Source of the DNA: Mannheimia granulomatis
GTDB taxonomy: Bacteria > Pseudomonadota > Gammaproteobacteria > Enterobacterales > Pasteurellaceae
Assembly: GCF_013377255.1 (NCBI RefSeq)
Contig: NZ_CP016614.1
Location: 1,620,021-1,684,020, forward strand
Direction of reading: 5' to 3'
DNA length: 64,000 nt
Both the position numbers and the translations under genes were made by a program. Below, piece after piece: positions 49,066 through 63,143 of the stretch (position 1 is the first letter of the stretch; each line of letters starts with the position of its first letter). The notes under the pieces were generated by a model. That model was not told the origin of the DNA, searched no databases, and was given only the letters and a program-made list of their open reading frames with translations.

Positions 49066-49105
49066 GGTTAAAATTTGCAAATTTTTTGCTAAATTTAACC
49101 GCTTG
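49066..49105. repeat. Inverted USS pair; shared terminator for the convergent pepA and ybjD-like genes
   Basis: AAGCGGTTAAA...TTTAACCGCTTGT. Confidence 0.8.
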
Positions 49106-50666
49106 TATTCAATTGACTCTCCTTATTTATCAACGCTAGCACATCTATAAACAATTTTTTAAATAAAGGCGGAACGGAATGTTCACTTCGATTTCGCATT
49201 TCATTAGATAAAGCAATCGCTAAATCGGGCTTTGATGTCTGTTGGATAGCTCGTTTAATAATATAAGATATCGGAAATTTTTCTTGTGAGCGCCAATTTG
49301 CTAAACGGACAAATACATTGCGTAACCCCGCTTTATAGAAGAAATGTTCAATATCCTTTTGTGGCAAAGTAGTCAAGCGCTTAGAAAAATCTTCGTCCAT
49401 ACTTTTAACTGTTTCTGTATAACGCTTCCCTGCCTCATCACCATCGGTTAAAACATACCATTCAATCCCCATTGCTCTTGCATATTTGATAAGCGGACGT
49501 AGCCCACATTGGGCAAATTCGACAATTTTGATACCTTCCATTTCCAAATTAATCTCAAGCAATCTTGCCAGCTCGCTTAGAATCCATACTTCTGTTTCGC
49601 CTTCTACTAAAATCCACGCTCGAGCAAATAAAACCAAGCCGCGGTTATGATGAATATGGAAGGTCAATTTCCGCAAATCATCTCTACCAAGATGGCTTCT
49701 ATCTAAAAGATAAGCCTGAGTATGATCTTGATAGCGAACCAGACGGCAAATTTCTTTTAAAGGCACTTGAGAAACCACCTCCATTGAATTGGTTGTGGTA
49801 ATACGTTGGCTTGGTAACAAGCTTAGCAATTCCCAAAAAATCGCGATCATTCTAGGGTGTAATTGAGCATTAAGATCTTCAAATAGGATAATCGGCTTAT
49901 CTATGCTATTAGCTTCTTGATTGAACAAAAATAATGCTGAAATATGGTGTTGAACTTTCTCTCTTAGGATCTCATTCTGCTTAAGACGCAAACATAGCGA
50001 TTTCACCTTTTCCCACCATAAGCTGGTATCTTGCATACCGGTTTTCATCAAAGTACGACTTTGAGCCGTTAGAAAATAATATTTCAAAAGCGAGGAAAGT
50101 GCACTTAGCTCTCGTTGAAACTCATCTTGATTCTCATAGTGACTCTGTAGAAGTAGCTCATCATGTACCCGCTTATTCAAACGTGCATCACGTAGGCGGT
50201 AAACCGAATGTTGCCGAATAAAACGCTTAATAAGTTTTTCAGATTGATTAAGTGAAATCGGTTTTAAATGGTGATCGACAAAATGATATTCAGTTATCAC
50301 ACTATCTTTGGTTAATTTACCGCTGACTTTTAGCGACAATTGCCGCAACTGCTCATTTAAAGAAAAAAAGAACGAGAGATAAGGAGAAAATCTTTCCGAT
50401 AAATGCTCATCTACCTGTTCTTCAGAAAAAGTAAACACAAGTTCAATATCTTGCACTTGCTTAGGCGTTTGAGAATATTGGATATGAAAATCTTTAAAAG
50501 TAAACTGATATAACTCATTTTCAAGATTAAAAATCAGGCTAAGGGCATCAATTAAGCTTGATTTTCCCCATGCATTCTCACCAATTAATACCATATTGGG
50601 AAGTAAAGGGAGAGATAAGCGATTAATACCACGAAAACCTGAAATTTCAATCTGCTTTAAATACAT
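49095..50666 (-). CDS. ybjD: OLD-family ATP-dependent endonuclease, YbjD-like (ABC ATPase + TOPRIM)
   Basis: MYLKQIEISGFRGINRLSL...GENAWGKSSL matches the E. coli YbjD N-terminus. TOPRIM region LVEGETEVWI...DGDEAGK. Confidence 0.8.
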   Translation of the reverse strand: MYLKQIEISGFRGINRLSLPLLPNMVLIGENAWGKSSLIDALSLIFNLENELYQFTFKDFHIQYSQTPKQVQDIELVFTFSEEQVDEHLSERFSPYLSFFFSLNEQLRQLSLKVSGKLTKDSVITEYHFVDHHLKPISLNQSEKLIKRFIRQHSVYRLRDARLNKRVHDELLLQSHYENQDEFQRELSALSSLLKYYFLTAQSRTLMKTGMQDTSLWWEKVKSLCLRLKQNEILREKVQHHISALFLFNQEANSIDKPIILFEDLNAQLHPRMIAIFWELLSLLPSQRITTTNSMEVVSQVPLKEICRLVRYQDHTQAYLLDRSHLGRDDLRKLTFHIHHNRGLVLFARAWILVEGETEVWILSELARLLEINLEMEGIKIVEFAQCGLRPLIKYARAMGIEWYVLTDGDEAGKRYTETVKSMDEDFSKRLTTLPQKDIEHFFYKAGLRNVFVRLANWRSQEKFPISYIIKRAIQQTSKPDLAIALSNEMRNRSEHSVPPLFKKLFIDVLALINKESQLNTSG

Positions 50667-54868: not shown

Positions 54869-57800
54869 TTAAGATAAAAATCCGCCAATCCCTTTAAACT
54901 TCTCTACAAAAGCCACGATTTTCTGAAAAACCGTCTGTTTTTTAGTCTTATATTGTGGATTTAACGGGCTCATTTTAGGTAGAAGATCATTTAAATCTGT
55001 CCCATTTTCGCTAGCATATTCTCGTTTGAGAGAGGTCATTATATACCGTTTTGCTGCATCTATATTTAAACTTTCGCTATCAATTAAGCTATCCGCTTCT
55101 CTTTTTTGCTCTTGCTGAGCAAAGCGGAAAAATTCATCAATGATAGTTGCTTTATCAGGAATTTTATCTAAATCGGTTTGATGGATAAAATCAACAACCA
55201 GACTTTCTTTTGCTCGATTATCAATGCTCGCACGAATTGTTCGGCGAATTTCTTCAATCAATGCTGGTTTGTTTTTGAGTTTCTTATTATGTTCAAAGAT
55301 CAACTCTAAAATATAATCTAAATTGATCTCTTGGGATTTTAATAGATCGACTTCAAAAACGACATCGCTCCAATCAATTTGAGATTTTTCCGCATTGCCG
55401 TTTTGAGTTTGTTTCCTTTTCCATTCACGAACATCGTTATAGGCAGAACGATAATCTTGTAGCTGCCTATCAGATAAAATCACATTATTGTTCGGAAGAT
55501 ATAGGCCTTCAGGCTCTTTCAATGCATTGTCTGGATATGTGGTGTTTTTTAATACGTAAAATTCATCGTAATTATGCAACACATTTTCCAAACGCAGATA
55601 CTCGCTAAATAGTTTGGTAAAGGCTTTTTTATCTTCCTCGGTGTCAAGCTGAGTCGGATCTGGGAATGTCATTTGTAGTGCCTTAACAACCTCTCGATAA
55701 CCTCGATGATAATTTCCATTAGTATCTTGATAACCGTCCATATATTCTTTGAAACTACGCTCTAATACGATATTTCGAGTATTTGTATTCCCAAACAAAG
55801 TAATGGCATCTATCGTATCTTGCTCTAAATTACGGAAAGTGACAATATTCCCGAATGGCTTTGTTGCATCATAAATACGGTTTGTACGGGAAAAGGCTTG
55901 TATTAAACCGTGATAACGTAGATTTTTATCCACAAATAACGTATTCAGTTTAGGGGCATCGAAACCGGTTAAAAACATGCCGACTACAATCAATAAATCC
56001 ACTTCTTGATTTTTAACTCTCATCGCCAAATCACGGTAGTAATTTTGGAATTCTTTGCTTTCTACTCCATAATTGGTTTTAAATAACTGATTGTAATCAT
56101 TGATTGCCGATGTCAAAAATTCTTTTGCTGAGCTATTCATTGCCGTTGGCTCAAAGGTTTCATCAACAATTTCACCTATCGCATTTTGTTCTTCATTGGC
56201 GGCAAACGAGAAAATCGTTGCAATTTTTAACGGATTTTGTACCGCTTGTTGTTGAATTTTGAACTGCTCGTAATAGGCTTTTGCCGCATCAACGGAACTT
56301 ACCGCAAACATTGCATTAAAGCCTTTGCCGGTGGTATTTAAGCGGTGTGTTTTTTGATTAAAATGGGTCAAAATATATTGGGTAATTTCCTCAATCCTTT
56401 TGGGGTGCAATAAGGCTTCTTTGGTTTCAAGTGCGGTCAGTTTTTCCGGATTTTTTTCTGTTTCAATATCTTGGAATTTCGGGCGAACATTATTGTAATC
56501 TACCTTAAATTTCAGCACTTTTTCATCACGAATTGCATCGGTAATCACATAGGAATGTAATTGTGAACCAAATACAGTTGCTGTTGTTTCCGCCCCTAAT
56601 GCATTATCGGCAAAAATCGGCGTACCAGTAAATCCAAACTGGCAGAATTTTTTAAACTTTTTCTTTAAATTCTTTTGGGCCTCGCCAAATTGAGATCGAT
56701 GACACTCATCAAAAATAAAGACGACCGGTTGAGAATAAATTGCCAAATCATTTTCAGATTTCATTAAATTATTGAGTTTCTGAATTGTGGTGACAATAAT
56801 TTTATTGTCATCTTTTTCAAGATTACGTTTTAAACCTAATGTACTTTCCGAACCATTTACACTATCAGGGGAAAAACGTTGATACTCTTTCATTGTTTGG
56901 TAATCCAGATCTTTTCTATCTACTACGAAGAACACTTTATCTATAAAATCCAATTCGGTGGCAAGACGTGCCGCTTTAAAGCTGGTGAGCGTTTTACCTG
57001 AACCTGTGGTATGCCAAATATAACCTCCGCTTTCTAAGTTTCCCCAATTTTTAGTTAAATGGGTATTTTGGATTTTCCATAAAATCCGCTCGGTTGCCGC
57101 AATTTGATACGGGCGCATAATCAATAATGTGTTGCTTACATCAAAAACCGAATAATTGATCAACACATTAAGTAGAGTATTTTTTTGGAAAAACGTAGCA
57201 GTGAAATCTTTTAAATCCTTAATCAGCGTATTATCTGATTTTGCCCAGTTCATCGTAAAATCAAAACTGTTTTTATCTCGCTTAGTGGTGTTGGCAAAAT
57301 AACGGGTATCTGTGCCGTTAGAAATAACAAAAACTTGCAGAAATTTAAACAGTGAATTTTCTGAATTGAAACTCTCTTTGCTATAACGATGAATTTGGTT
57401 AAAGGCTTCTCGAATGGCTACGCCACGCTTTTTCAACTCAATTTGGACTAACGGCAAGCCATTCACAAGAATAGTCACATCATAGCGATTAAGATATTCA
57501 CCTTTTTGTTCAAATTGATTGATAACTTGCACTTTATTACGAGCAATCTCTTTTTTATCTAACAAATAGATATTTTGAATCCGCCCATTATCAAACACAA
57601 AATCATAGATATGATCTTGATGAATTTTTCGGGTTTTCTCGATAATACTTTCTGAGGATTTATCGAGATATTCATCAACAAAACGTTTCCATTCCGAATC
57701 TAAAAAACGCACATTATTTAATTTTTCCAACTGCTCACGCACATTCATTAGCAATTTTTCTTGGCTATTTAAATCAGGGCGATATTCATAACCTTGAAAC

Positions 57801-57931
57801 TGCAAATCGGCGATCAGCTCTTGCTCTAAATCGGCTTCGGTTTGATAAGAACTTGGCTTCTCGATTGTTTCATATTTATCTAAAACGATGAAATTATTGG
57901 TTTCTGTGATGGGAGTTGTTTCAAGGTTCAT
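54869..57931 (-). CDS. hsdR: Type I restriction enzyme R subunit HsdR (type IC, EcoR124/EcoprrI-like)
   Basis: 1020 aa with SF2 helicase motifs ([28 protein letters not shown]) and an N-terminal nuclease domain. As I recall it, the sequence is close to EcoR124I-type HsdR. Confidence 0.9.
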
Positions 57932-59015
57932 TATTTACATCCTTCCAATAGCTATAATTATCAATTAAATGATTTAATAAATAGACTACAATATTCTTTT
58001 CAGCTTCTGTTGGCTCTGCCACTTCATCGTCGGTTAATGTTGAATGGCTAAATCGATTAACTTGTCTAGTATATAACTCTTTCTCATCTGGCAACAATTC
58101 AGACCATTTTGCATAACCCAAAAAGTTAGCAGTTTTTTCATAAAGATTTCGTAACAAAGTAAAGTGATACTTTTGAATCTCTCTATTTATAATAGCCTCT
58201 TCAATAGTCTTCTTTAAAAATAAATGATAAGAAAATGCTTTATTGGAATCTCCTTTTTTCTCATCTAGCTCAAAACTGCCATCATCATGCTTTTTAAGAA
58301 AATAACCATTTTTTAAACCTAATTCATTATATAAAACATTATAAAACAATGTGTTATGCGTAGAGATTACAAATTTTAAACCACTTACAGACTTAGTTAA
58401 ATCTGCTAAATCAATTGCTAATTGTATTAGATGATTTTCATCTAATGAGCTAACTGGATCATCTATAAAAATATACTGCAACTTATTAAAATCTTGAGTG
58501 GAACGATCACTCTCGTCCATTTTCAACTCTTCGATTACTGATTTAAGTAGCGAGTAAAAAACACTCCATACAAAATTACTTTCTTCTCCTTTTGAAATTT
58601 TAATATTATCTTCTACTTCATCATTACCTCTAGTAAAAGAAAAGGTAACTTCATTAAAGTCCTCGCTAAATTTTGGTGTCAGTTTATCATTGGTATAGCG
58701 TTGAAAATGAGTAATAATATTTTGGTCTTGAGCCTGATCTTTTAATACCCAGTTGGTGAAACTATTTGGCTGAATTTTCAACTTAGGCTGACTATCTTCA
58801 TTTAAATCATTATCCCAATAAAACAGATCTTCAGTAAATGCGTTATAGTAAAGAATGTCATTTCTTGCAAATTCACTATGATTCTTGGGGGAAACTAATT
58901 CTTTAAATGCTCTTGAAAGCCTTGTTTTACCTGAACCATTAAACGCGTAAATGAGTTGAACTTTCTGCTGTTTGTCCCTTAGCATTGTTGCAATTTCAGT
59001 CAAATCTTTACTCAT
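57921..59015 (-). CDS. prrC: PrrC-like anticodon nuclease (ABC-type NTPase N-domain + R-x3-E...H nuclease motif)
   Basis: Walker A FNGSGKT and Walker B/D-loop [13 protein letters not shown]-terminal LLRNLYE followed 31 residues later by RFSHS, matching PrrC Arg320-x3-Glu324...His356. Sits between hsdS and hsdR, as in the E. coli prr locus. Confidence 0.55.
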
Positions 59016-59030
59016 AATCTTACTACCTTA

Positions 59031-60317
59031 TTATTTAGGAAAATCCAACAACTGCTCCCGATAATACTCATACTGTTTCCGTCTTAACGCAATTTCTTTC
59101 GGTAATCCTTCGCTGATAGAATTAGTCAAGCGATCGAATTTATCTAAAATTTTGACAATTTTTTGTTGTTCTGTTAATGAAGGAACAGGAATCTCATATT
59201 TCAAAAAATTATTTGAATTAAGGCGAATGACTTTTGTTCCTTGTGCATATTTTTCTTTATATTTTGCAAAACGTTCTGTTTGCAATAAATAGGTAAGATA
59301 TTTTGTTTCTAAATCATTATTAGGTCTAAATGCAAACATATCACCTGAAAAAACTATTTCATCGCCTAACCAACCTAATGGTTTCATTACATCTTCAATG
59401 TTTTCACTTGTCCCCGCAATTAACACATCGCCTTTTCTGGCTTTTTTGAGTTTTTTGGCTAATTCAACAGAAACAAAAGACTTCGTTTTATCTGCAAAAG
59501 TACTATAATAAGTATAAATCTGCCCATAATGAATTGCAGGTACTCCACTTTCAGTAAAATCTTTTTTCTGTAATCCATTTCCACGAATTAACTCACCAAC
59601 TTCCCCCAAAGCCTTAAACACCACTTGACCACTGTGGTACAAGGCTTTGGTGATGTCATTATACCCCCCCCTATCTAAATCTTGCGGGAATGTCAATAGG
59701 GTTTCTCGGTAATATTGATATTGTTTTTTCCGCAGTGCTAATTCAGCTTCCAGCGTAGCTTCCAGCTCAGTGAATTTGTCAAGTGTTTTTACAATTTTTT
59801 CTTGGGTTGAGAGTGGGGGGATTGGGATTATTATTTTAGCTAATTCCTTCATTGGAACACTTTTAACCGTACCTCCAGCAGATTTACTTAAAAAATCTTT
59901 TCTAATGAAATCTATTTCAAAAAGATATAAAAGGAATTTAGGCAAAATTATATTCTTCTTTGGTTTTATGGCATAAACTCCTTCTTTGATATTCCAATTC
60001 CTAGGTTCTTTGTCAATCAGTGCTACATTTCCAATAGTCCCTGTTCCAGAAAATAAAATATCTCCAATTTCTAAATTAGAACGGTTATTACATAATTTCA
60101 ACGCTTCATCATTTAATTTATCAGTTTTATCAGTAAAAATGATTTTATGATTTTGTAATTCTCTAATTGTTACATAGTAATTAGTTGCATCAGGTGTATT
60201 TAATGTAAAAAATTGTCTTGGATTTAAACCTGTTTTTATCGAATGACAAACTTCCCCCAAAGGCTTCCACTCAACCTCAGCCCCATTTAATAATTTCTCA
60301 ATAATTTGATTACTCAT
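59031..60317 (-). CDS. hsdS: Type I restriction-modification specificity subunit HsdS (two target-recognition domains, type IC-like)
   Basis: Two variable target-recognition domains separated and followed by the conserved repeats ELALRKKQYQYYRETLLTFP and EIALRRKQYEYYREQLLDFP. Confidence 0.9.
   Translation of the reverse strand: MSNQIIEKLLNGAEVEWKPLGEVCHSIKTGLNPRQFFTLNTPDATNYYVTIRELQNHKIIFTDKTDKLNDEALKLCNNRSNLEIGDILFSGTGTIGNVALIDKEPRNWNIKEGVYAIKPKKNIILPKFLLYLFEIDFIRKDFLSKSAGGTVKSVPMKELAKIIIPIPPLSTQEKIVKTLDKFTELEATLEAELALRKKQYQYYRETLLTFPQDLDRGGYNDITKALYHSGQVVFKALGEVGELIRGNGLQKKDFTESGVPAIHYGQIYTYYSTFADKTKSFVSVELAKKLKKARKGDVLIAGTSENIEDVMKPLGWLGDEIVFSGDMFAFRPNNDLETKYLTYLLQTERFAKYKEKYAQGTKVIRLNSNNFLKYEIPVPSLTEQQKIVKILDKFDRLTNSISEGLPKEIALRRKQYEYYREQLLDFPK
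59664..59671 (-). repeat. G8 homopolymer in hsdS (C8 on the + strand), codons R-G-G of the DLDRGGYND segment at the start of the second target-recognition domain
   Basis: Read directly: ATACCCCCCCCTATC. Confidence 0.9.
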
Positions 60318-60320
60318 TTT

Positions 60321-60390
60321 GCAAATTTTCCTGATTTTTATACCGCTTGTTTTAGATTGTGGCGAATGTAATTCACCCCTACGATGATAA
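60321..60390. repeat. Direct repeat copy B (hsdS leader), about 70 bp, containing a USS core and a short hairpin
   Basis: GCAAATTTTCCTGATTTTTATACCGCTTGTTTTAGATTGTGGCGAATGTAATTCACCCCTACGATGATAA is about 85% identical to copy A. Confidence 0.8.
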
Positions 60391-60480
60391 CCTTTGATAA
60401 AATTTCAACCGTTTTTCAAGTCTTGACAATTTAAATTATTGACCTTTTGATCCATTTCAGTATAATGACCCCCAATAACT

Positions 60481-60530
60481 CCCCTAGCTTTGCCAACCCA
60501 CGAGGTTGGAACTACAAGGTTGGGGGCTTT
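60481..60530. repeat. GC-rich nested inverted repeat downstream of abi
   Basis: CCCCTAGC...CCAACCCACGAGGTTGG...GGTTGGGGG. Confidence 0.5.
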
Positions 60531-60534
60531 CTTT

Positions 60535-61446
60535 TTAGGCTTTCTGCCATAATTTCCACTGACTCAAATCTGTCACAATACCCATTTGTTGTAAATTAAT
60601 CGCATCATTTTCAACATTGGGAAATTCTTCCAAAAGTGCCAAAAATCTTGCTCCCCAAGTTGAATTTGGGCAAATCACATCTAACATACGCTTCATTAAA
60701 CAAAAATAGACAAAAGGCTGAGCAACATTAAGCTGTTTCCATTGTGCATCTTGTAAGCCTTTCAGATTTGCTTTGAAAATAATCGGCTTATTCCACAAGC
60801 GGCTATGATGAGCGGAGACATTTCGGATAAAATTAAAAGCGTGCAAATGCGTTTGTAAATGTTTCCCGTCTTTTAAGTGATAAATTTTGGCAATGCGGTC
60901 TTTATCTTTCGATAACATTCCCTTGTAAAGCATCGACATTGTGCCGAAATCCCATACTTCGCTGGCTGCCCAAATCGGTAAATCGCCATAATGTTCTAAA
61001 TGATGCTTAACAAAACTACTTTCTGATTCTCTATTGATTAGATTTTGATATTTATCTAACCATTTTTGATGTTCAAAGTGCGGTTCAAAATACTGTGATT
61101 TTTGATGAACTAATGGTTCATATTTACCTAATTCATAGGCAATACTCACTCTTAAAGCAATTTCAATACGTTCTAAAGCATCAAGTGCTAACTGTCTGAG
61201 CTTTTTGTCAAAAATATACAATGCTTTTACATCTTCAAAACGGCTATTAGGAATAAACTGATCTAGCCGATTTTTAGGATTGCCTGGATCTATTTGTCGA
61301 AAAGAATACAGATACCCACTTAGCCGATAATAACCAAGACTTTTCAAGTAGCCTAAAGCTTTCTTTTCGTCATTAATCAATAGCCCTCTTTCTTGTAAAA
61401 GATCGAGTTGTTCATTAAAACTTTTCCAAAGTTTCTGCTGCTTCAT
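60535..61446 (-). CDS. Abi_2-family abortive infection protein (AbiD/AbiF-like)
   Basis: N-terminal ...SFNEQLDLLQERGLLINDEKKALGYLKSLGYYRLSGYLYSF and the RNVSAHHSRLWN motif, both characteristic of Pfam Abi_2. Start set at MKQQKLW (ATG); the ORF track begins at an upstream TTG. Confidence 0.65.
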   Translation of the reverse strand: MKQQKLWKSFNEQLDLLQERGLLINDEKKALGYLKSLGYYRLSGYLYSFRQIDPGNPKNRLDQFIPNSRFEDVKALYIFDKKLRQLALDALERIEIALRVSIAYELGKYEPLVHQKSQYFEPHFEHQKWLDKYQNLINRESESSFVKHHLEHYGDLPIWAASEVWDFGTMSMLYKGMLSKDKDRIAKIYHLKDGKHLQTHLHAFNFIRNVSAHHSRLWNKPIIFKANLKGLQDAQWKQLNVAQPFVYFCLMKRMLDVICPNSTWGARFLALLEEFPNVENDAINLQQMGIVTDLSQWKLWQKA

Positions 61447-61460
61447 ATTTATAATTATTT

Positions 61461-61535
61461 GCAAATTTTTCTGATTTTTATACCGCTTGTTTTTATGTCT
61501 TAGGGCGAATATGATTCGCTGCTACGATGATAATC
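61461..61535. repeat. Direct repeat copy A (upstream of abi), about 75 bp, with a USS core and a GCGAAT/ATTCGC hairpin
   Basis: GCAAATTTTTCTGATTTTTATACCGCTTGTTTTTATGTCTTAGGGCGAATATGATTCGCTGCTACGATGATAATCC. Confidence 0.8.
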
Positions 61536-61595
61536 CTGATTTTGGGAATATTTATCTATTTTTGTAGGGGCGGATTATATCCGCCCTCTAATCAT

Positions 61596-63143
61596 TTATC
61601 CGTTTTCAATCTCCGCCACTATTTCATCAATTTCCCTCCGCAAGCGGTCAATTTTTGCCACCGTTTCACTAATTTCGGCATTGAGTTCAGTAATGTTAAT
61701 CACTTCTCGGGTATCTTTTTGTTCGACATAAGAGCTTACCGCAAGATTGTACTCATTATCCGCAATTTTGCGATTATCGACTGATTTTGCTAAATGATCC
61801 ACATCGGCTTTATCAGAAAAAAGTTGGAGAATTTCAGCAATATGCTCATCGGTTAGTACATTATTGTTGGTTTCTTTCTTAAACAGTTCGCTTGCATCAA
61901 TAAACTGGGTTTTTGTATCAGTTTTATGCTTGGAAAGCACTAAAATATTCGTTGCAATACTTGTGCCAAAGAAAAGATTTGGCGGTAGTGCAATTACGGT
62001 TTCTACAACATTTTGCTCAATGAGATATTGACGAATTTTTTGCTCTGCACCGCTACGATAGAAAATACCGGGGAAAGTGACAATCGCAGCACGCCCTTTT
62101 GCTGAAAGATAATTTAAGGCGTGCAGAATAAAGGCAAAATCGGCTTTGGATTTCGGTGCGAGAATACCCGCCGGTGCAAAACGCTCATCATTAATTAATG
62201 TTGGGTCATCAGAACCAATCCATTTAATCGAATAAGGCGGATTAGATACAATCGCATCAAAAGGTTTATCATCTTTTAATTTTGGGTTGATCAGCGTATC
62301 GCCCAATTCAATATGGAATTTGTCATAATTGATATTATGCAAAAACATATTCATACGAGCGAGGTTGTAGGTGGTATGATTGATCTCTTGCCCAAAGAAG
62401 CCTTCTTCAATCACGTGATCATCAAATTGTTTTTTCGCTTGTAGTAATAACGAGCCAGAACCACAAGCCGGATCATAAATTTTATTAACAGTAGTTTGTC
62501 CATATAAAGCTAGTTGTGCAATCAATTTAGACACATTTTGCGGAGTGAAAAACTCTCCACCAGATTTACCAGCATTTGCTGCATAGTTTGAAATCAGAAA
62601 CTCATAAGCATCACCAAACAAATCAATTTGATTATCTTCAAAACGACCAAAATCGAGTTCCGCTACGCCTTTTAATACCGCAGCAAGACGTTTACTTTTT
62701 TCACTGACACTACTGCCCAATTTACTTGATCTTGTATCAAAATCAGCAAATAAGCCTTTAATATCTTGTTCCGATGGATAACCTACAGCAGAACTTTCAA
62801 TAGCCTCAAAAATCTCAGCCAATTCAGTATTGAGTGCCTGATTTTGGTGTGCAGTTTTTGCTACATTTTTAAATAACTGACTTGGATAAATAAAATAGCC
62901 TTTGGTTTTAATCGCATCTTCTTTAATGCCAAATGCATCAATTTCTTCATCGGAATAGGTAGAATAATCAACACTTTCATCACCGTTAGCGATATATTCT
63001 GCAAAATTTTCACTAATAAATCGGTAAAACAATGTGCCTAATACATATTGCTTAAAATCCCAACCATCTACCGCTCCACGAACTTCGTTTGCAATTCGCC
63101 AGATTTGACGCTGGAGTTCTGCTCTTTGTTGAATAGTTGCCAT
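61596..63143 (-). CDS. hsdM: Type I restriction-modification methyltransferase subunit HsdM (N6-adenine, type IC-like)
   Basis: NPPYSIKW motif IV, AdoMet motif ([11 protein letters not shown]), N-terminal HsdM_N domain; 515 aa. Confidence 0.92.

Follow-up and report, generated by a model that had tools for sequence, protein, structure and literature searches.

The window examined here, which is the whole stretch of 64,000 nucleotides taken from Mannheimia granulomatis, contains a type IC restriction-modification (R-M) cassette. In the chromosome, the cassette lies between gyrA and uup-tcdA-ppnN-ybjD-pepA. It encodes the three Hsd subunits, a predicted PrrC-family anticodon nuclease and an AbiD protein, and its features are as follows:

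54869–57931, minus strand: hsdR, type IC restriction subunit, 1020 aa (Pfam HSDR_N, SWI2_SNF2, T1R_D3-like and EcoR124_C)
57921–59015 (stop codon included), minus strand: prrC, ATG start, 364 aa, predicted PrrC-family anticodon nuclease
57921–57931, minus strand: 11-nt overlap of prrC and hsdR (ATGAACCTTGA), read directly from the sequence
59031–60317, minus strand: hsdS, specificity subunit, 428 aa (Pfam Methylase_S, two stretches)
60318–60390, no strand assigned: direct repeat copy B, which abuts the hsdS ATG (repeat search and alignment with the M. haemolytica hsdM-hsdS spacer)
60535–61464, minus strand: abiD, Abi_2 family, HEPN motif RNVSAH (Pfam Abi_2, E = 7e-54; PADLOC AbiD, E = 5e-65)
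61458–61533, no strand assigned: direct repeat copy A, just upstream of the abiD start (repeat search and alignment with the M. haemolytica spacer)
61596–63143, minus strand: hsdM, methyltransferase subunit, 515 aa (Pfam N6_Mtase, E = 7e-119, and HsdM_N)

The prrC gene was located between hsdS and hsdR, as the preliminary description of this DNA had placed it, and the 11-nt overlap with the hsdR start that it had claimed was borne out by the coordinates: 57921 is the last base of the prrC stop codon, and the hsdR ATG starts at 57931. A Shine-Dalgarno-like run (GGAAGGA) was found inside prrC, 9–15 nt upstream of the hsdR ATG, and the hsdS stop codon precedes the prrC ATG by 15 nt. The prrC/hsdR overlap is also 11 nt in the M. 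haemolytica gene calls and 8 nt in the E. coli RefSeq annotation. Given the EcoR124_C domain in HsdR, the R-M system was assigned to type IC, like EcoprrI of E. coli. The two systems are alike in gene order (the prr locus being hsdM-hsdS-prrC-hsdR), in strand and in the overlap of prrC with hsdR, while the Mannheimia locus has an extra gene, abiD, between hsdM and hsdS. HsdR and HsdM are 72% and 77% identical, respectively, to their counterparts in the E. coli prrC locus.

The arrangement was compared across a set of related loci, consisting of 80 loci from 80 species and two E. coli loci. In 82/82 of these loci, wherever the flanks were present, hsdM..hsdS-prrC..hsdR followed one another in this order on a single strand, and the HsdM and HsdR proteins of these loci were ∼75% and ∼72% identical to the Mannheimia counterparts. 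A promoter scan of the operon returned 33 promoter-like sites, no more than the 35.5 that chance alone would give, and the one terminator-like hairpin found in the operon scan, a weak one, lies right after hsdR (54861–54846). The operon structure and the translational coupling of its genes are inferred from gene spacing only.

The product of prrC was divided into an N-terminal NTPase domain and a C-terminal nuclease domain. The locations of the domains and motifs are as follows:

58284–59015, minus strand: N-terminal ABC/Rad50-like NTPase domain, residues 1–244
58923–58946, minus strand: Walker A, AFNGSGKT, residues 24–31
58812–58892, minus strand: PrrC box
58584–58598, minus strand: NTPase signature ISKGE, residues 140–144
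58440–58475, minus strand: Walker B and D-loop, residues 181–192
58356–58376, minus strand: H-loop, KFVISTH
57924–58283, minus strand: C-terminal anticodon-nuclease (HEPN-type) domain, residues 245–364
58227–58259, minus strand: LARP-like stretch of the C-terminal domain
58149–58151, minus strand: R289, within LLRNLYE
58137–58139, minus strand: E293, within LLRNLYE
58044–58067, minus strand: R317-x6-H324 motif, with H324 within VNRFSHS

The preliminary description had reported a 364-aa open reading frame at 57921–59015 and had named no strand; it is present on the minus strand. All of the motif strings that it quoted were found in the translation, at residues 24–31, 181–192, 289/293 and 324, and the R-x3-E pattern followed by a His 31 residues later corresponds to R289, E293 and H324. 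The R317-x6-H324 motif agrees with the R-x4-6-H pattern of HEPN proteins and sits in an all-helical domain, and HEPN fold matches were obtained for the protein. The gene has a G+C content of 30.1%, and its product contains no Cys. The structure predicted from a 40-sequence alignment was of moderate confidence only, with pLDDT below 50 near the P-loop (residues 25–33), at residues 46–62 and in the tRNA recognition stretch (residues 255–261).

Profile searches were then considered for the family assignment. The PADLOC PrrC profile matched residues 3–362 of the protein over profile positions 19–352 of 372 (E = 1.8e-140, 466 bits), and the second-best PADLOC family reached 49 bits. Pfam AAA_13 was matched at 56.7 bits, above the gathering cut-off of 36. 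These are the Pfam and PrrC profile matches that the preliminary description had looked to as a check of its proposal. The NCBIfam search gave sub-threshold ABC-transporter matches only and no PrrC model, and the sequence search of the PDB returned unrelated proteins (best E = 0.27), with no solved PrrC structure comparable by sequence. In a search of 5.8 billion proteins, at least 8000 matches were recovered. The best 120 of these were all AAA_13 proteins of 364–395 aa with 62–94% identity; several of them were named "anticodon nuclease", and their sources span many phyla. One M. haemolytica ortholog (P0002, 94% identical), which is the representative of the 90% cluster, carries that name as well. 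An identical protein from Mannheimia granulomatis is already public (WP_027074207.1 / QLB19340.1) under the names "ATP-binding protein" and "hypothetical protein".

An R-x3-E...H pattern by itself could occur by chance. In the 40-homologue alignment, however, R289, N290, E293 and H324 were invariant, as were the NTPase motifs, and together with the full-length PrrC homology this places the pattern beyond chance.

To relate individual residues to published work, a 396-aa E. coli "anticodon nuclease" (L001:6067–7257), from a plasmid hsdM-hsdS-prrC-hsdR locus, was used as the reference. It carries the published residue at 33/33 of the essential positions of EcoPrrC (Table 1 of Meineke and Shuman, 2010, PMC3025547), and the published numbering is therefore valid for it. 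R320, E324 and H356 occur in the reference at their published numbers, with the His 32 residues after the Glu, in agreement with the triad and spacing that the preliminary description had given for E. coli PrrC. The Mannheimia protein aligned end to end with the reference at 63% identity. R289, E293 and H324 fell in the same alignment columns as Arg320, Glu324 and His356, so that the proposed residues do occupy the anticodon nuclease (ACNase) triad columns, and the difference between the 31- and 32-residue Glu-His spacings is due to one single-residue gap in the pairwise alignment. The Mannheimia protein is 32 residues shorter than E. coli PrrC, lacking two insertions in the N-domain and the one residue before the catalytic His, while the R-x6-H HEPN motif, the NTPase motifs, the PrrC box and the Arg-Glu-His triad are common to both.

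Identity at the essential EcoPrrC residues was found at 31/33 positions, the exceptions being D223E and H297F. D223E retained toxicity in EcoPrrC (Table 1, PMC3025547), and the PrrC of S. mutans, which is toxic, has Met at the position of H297 (PMC3025547). In the NTPase domain, K30/T31 aligned with K46/T47, D185/D186 with D215/D216, SSLD192 with SSLD222 and H220 with H251, and the signature reads ISKGE in Mannheimia against LSKGE in EcoPrrC. The PrrC box, which is unique to the family (EcoPrrC residues 68–94), contains a 15-residue run identical to E. coli, and its residues E62/W67/D68/N69 correspond to E88/W93/D94/N95 of EcoPrrC. The C-terminal 120 residues aligned column by column with the nuclease domain of EcoPrrC and retained 10/11 of its essential residues; besides the triad, seven of the eight others (D276, H295, H297, K299, H315, N321, R349 and N352) are identical, with Phe at H297.

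These results bear on the possibility that the gene encodes a generic ABC-type ATPase of the AAA_13/AAA_15/AAA_21 kind, devoid of a nuclease domain. The names in the public records and the lack of a specific NCBIfam model match are in keeping with such an identity. However, the PrrC profile match runs the full length of the protein and includes the C-domain, and it is in this domain that the EcoPrrC nuclease columns and the HEPN fold were matched. A best homology to nuclease-less AAA_15/AAA_21 ATPases, which the preliminary description had named as the outcome that would count against it, was not what the searches returned, the PrrC profile standing at 466 bits and the next family at 49. A generic ATPase was thus refuted by the profile match and the EcoPrrC alignment, and we consider it extremely improbable.

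The protein was also compared with RloC, an anticodon nuclease that excises the wobble nucleotide. According to the literature (PMC2610378, PMC3025547), RloC shares the general plan of an ABC-ATPase N-region followed by an ACNase C-domain of the HEPN type, and the Arg-Glu-His triad too, which speaks for this alternative. RloC is set apart by a long, zinc-hook-bearing Rad50-like region and by its rare linkage to R-M systems; the Mannheimia protein has neither feature. At 364 aa it aligned with PrrC from end to end, with no long Rad50-like region inserted; it can have no zinc hook, since it contains no Cys; and there was no RloC model among the PADLOC matches. Its embedding in an R-M operon is what is usual for prrC, whereas rloC is seldom found in such a setting (PMC3458546). 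Protein length, the PrrC alignment and the absence of Cys refuted RloC, whose probability we regard as vanishingly small. The identification as a PrrC-like anticodon nuclease, as first proposed, is supported by the full-length profile match and by the alignment of the triad columns, and on the basis of its sequence the Mannheimia protein is an ortholog of PrrC, intact and of full length.

The likely substrate was approached through the stretch 284-KYGDSNKSFSY-294 of EcoPrrC, which has been implicated in recognizing the anticodon of tRNA-Lys and occurs in an E. coli-like subset of PrrC proteins (PMC1484252). The Mannheimia protein keeps 9/11 positions of this stretch and differs by Y285K and S291A. 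As the equivalents of Asp287, Ser288, Phe292 and Tyr294 are kept, tRNA-Lys is the predicted target.

A PrrC-family protein may nevertheless differ from the prototype in its substrate, trigger or activity, for instance by cutting another tRNA, by responding to another anti-restriction protein or by being weakly active. The substrate specificity of PrrC homologs has been proposed to vary by Kaufmann's group (PMC1484252), and the PrrC proteins of Neisseria and Xanthomonas, which bear the triad, were non-toxic in yeast (PMC3025547); the latter result means that the activity of the Mannheimia protein is not to be presumed. The two substitutions in the recognition stretch point the same way, as does H297F, which alters a residue essential in EcoPrrC. 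On the other hand, the stretch fits the E. coli-like consensus with its four key equivalents in place, S291A is tolerated in EcoPrrC (PMC3025547), and the remaining essential residues are conserved. On balance, such a divergent PrrC appears very unlikely.

The explanation that we hold to be highly probable is that of an intact PrrC in an hsdM-[abiD]-hsdS-prrC-hsdR type IC cassette, which would be masked by the R-M enzyme, cut tRNA-Lys and abort infection. The catalytic activity, the target tRNA and the trigger of the Mannheimia PrrC are inferred from the E. coli prototype, and both the translational coupling and the masking by the restriction complex, which the preliminary description had raised, are suggested by analogy with EcoprrI. 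Following the E. coli work (PMC1484252, PMC3025547, PMC3710099), PrrC and HsdR would share a transcript, and PrrC would be co-translated with the HsdMSR complex and kept latent by it. PrrC would be unmasked once the R-M enzyme is disabled by an anti-restriction factor of a phage, and the NTPase domain, as a head-to-tail dimer, would relay the activation, which in E. coli PrrC involves GTP hydrolysis and dTTP binding (PMC1484252, PMC3710099). The HEPN domain would then cut tRNA-Lys in its anticodon loop, 5' of the wobble base, in a metal-independent transesterification, which would leave 2',3'-cyclic phosphate and 5'-OH ends. Cleavage of tRNA-Lys would halt translation and thereby abort the infection. 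As regards the trigger, T4 Stp, the activator of E. coli PrrC, is phage-specific, and it cannot be assumed to act in a Mannheimia host. A tRNA scan of the window found no tRNA genes.

The gene between hsdM and hsdS adds a second predicted RNase to the operon. The true start of abiD is likely the ATG at 61446, because an 87%-identical homolog starts with MKQQK. A direct repeat of ∼76 nt lies on either side of abiD; two blocks of it are 97% and 83% identical between the copies. At the same site, M. haemolytica has a single leader copy and no abiD, and M. indoligenes (L003) has abiD with the repeats in the same arrangement as here. The state of the M. haemolytica site points to gain or loss of the abiD cassette through the repeated hsdS leader. 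Anantharaman et al. (2013, PMC3710099) counted Abi2/AbiD among the HEPN RNases that are "embedded in R-M operons". The Mannheimia AbiD occupies the position of such R-M-embedded HEPN abortive-infection genes (Abi2/AbiD/AbiF) and carries RNVSAH; what distinguishes this locus from them is that AbiD and PrrC occur within one type IC operon.

Among the 82 PrrC loci, this AbiD was found at the Mannheimia locus and in none of the loci of other species. It was also encountered in a metagenomic, Pasteurellaceae-like contig from Logan (SRR9866669, L083:3071–12240), which has the order hsdM-RhuM-Abi_2-hsdS-prrC-hsdR, with RhuM split in two ORFs, at a non-syntenic chromosomal site. The AbiD and PrrC of this contig are 87% and 74% identical, respectively, to those of Mannheimia, and short leader repeats that end in TTTGCAAA lie on both sides of its cassette. 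In view of the higher identity of AbiD than of PrrC and of the flanking leader repeats, the AbiD cassette seems to move between PrrC loci.

Other genes were observed at these positions in the related loci. An extra gene of ∼1 kb separates prrC from hsdR in 27/82 PrrC loci (L003–L082 set), where the prrC-hsdR overlap is lost; Pfam searches on representatives identified the genes in this slot as RhuM, YhcG/DUF1016 or Bro-N. Cargo between hsdM and hsdS was seen in ∼20 loci and comprised RhuM, Fic, YhcG, KilA-N, RelA/SpoT-like and Fic-like_C/HATPase_c_4 genes. A more elaborate reading of the locus, which we consider rather unlikely, is a three-layer module in which PrrC and AbiD would both be restrained by the same type IC complex and released upon its inhibition, with the hsdM-hsdS spacer acting as a cassette-exchange site. 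Accessory toxin genes would be swapped there by recombination between the duplicated copies of the hsdS leader, the exchanged cargo being AbiD in this locus, while other PrrC loci would have RhuM, Fic, YhcG, KilA-N or RelA/SpoT-like genes.

Synteny of the locus extends to M. haemolytica and to M. indoligenes, with 87–88% DNA identity to the latter. The PrrC orthologs of M. haemolytica and M. indoligenes are 94–95% identical to the M. granulomatis protein, have the same length of 364 aa, occupy the same chromosomal site and overlap hsdR by the same 11 nt, while the specificity domains of HsdS differ between the species. HsdS shares only 43% identity with its M. indoligenes counterpart, against 88–95% for HsdM, PrrC and HsdR, and the alignment of hsdS DNA with that species is restricted to the central and 3' conserved segments. 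This divergence of HsdS amid well-conserved neighbours indicates that the target-recognition domains were swapped between Mannheimia species, which would give their R-M systems different specificities. The R-M/PrrC/AbiD cassette (54869–63143) has a G+C content of 34.5%, compared with 39.2% in the rest of the window; the low value fits horizontal acquisition that predates the split of several Mannheimia species.

A further defence candidate was considered in the window and rejected. The gene at 49095–50666 (minus strand, 523 aa) was matched as GajA-like in PADLOC (E = 1e-79), as in a Gabija system, and has no adjacent helicase partner. It has the DUF2813 and OLD-TOPRIM domains of a YbjD-type, class 1 OLD protein, lies between pepA and ppnN among housekeeping neighbours, and keeps its syntenic position in other Mannheimia. 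A Gabija system is therefore improbable here, and a defence island shared with prrC was rejected.

The prrC gene of M. granulomatis is an ordinary member of the well-studied PrrC family, already known and detectable by automatic means. Its assignment has little importance past annotation and raises no new question on the mechanism of PrrC; the records WP_027074207.1 / QLB19340.1 can be renamed with confidence as a PrrC-family anticodon nuclease. Mannheimia species are veterinary pathogens. In a defensome survey of genomes of the related Actinobacillus pleuropneumoniae, PrrC was present in 80% and AbiD in 58% (PMC12242098), so that the system is a frequent one in this family of bacteria. Given the pathogenicity of Mannheimia and the frequency of PrrC and AbiD in A. 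pleuropneumoniae, the occurrence of two predicted abortive-infection RNases in one type IC locus is relevant to the host range of phages used in therapy.
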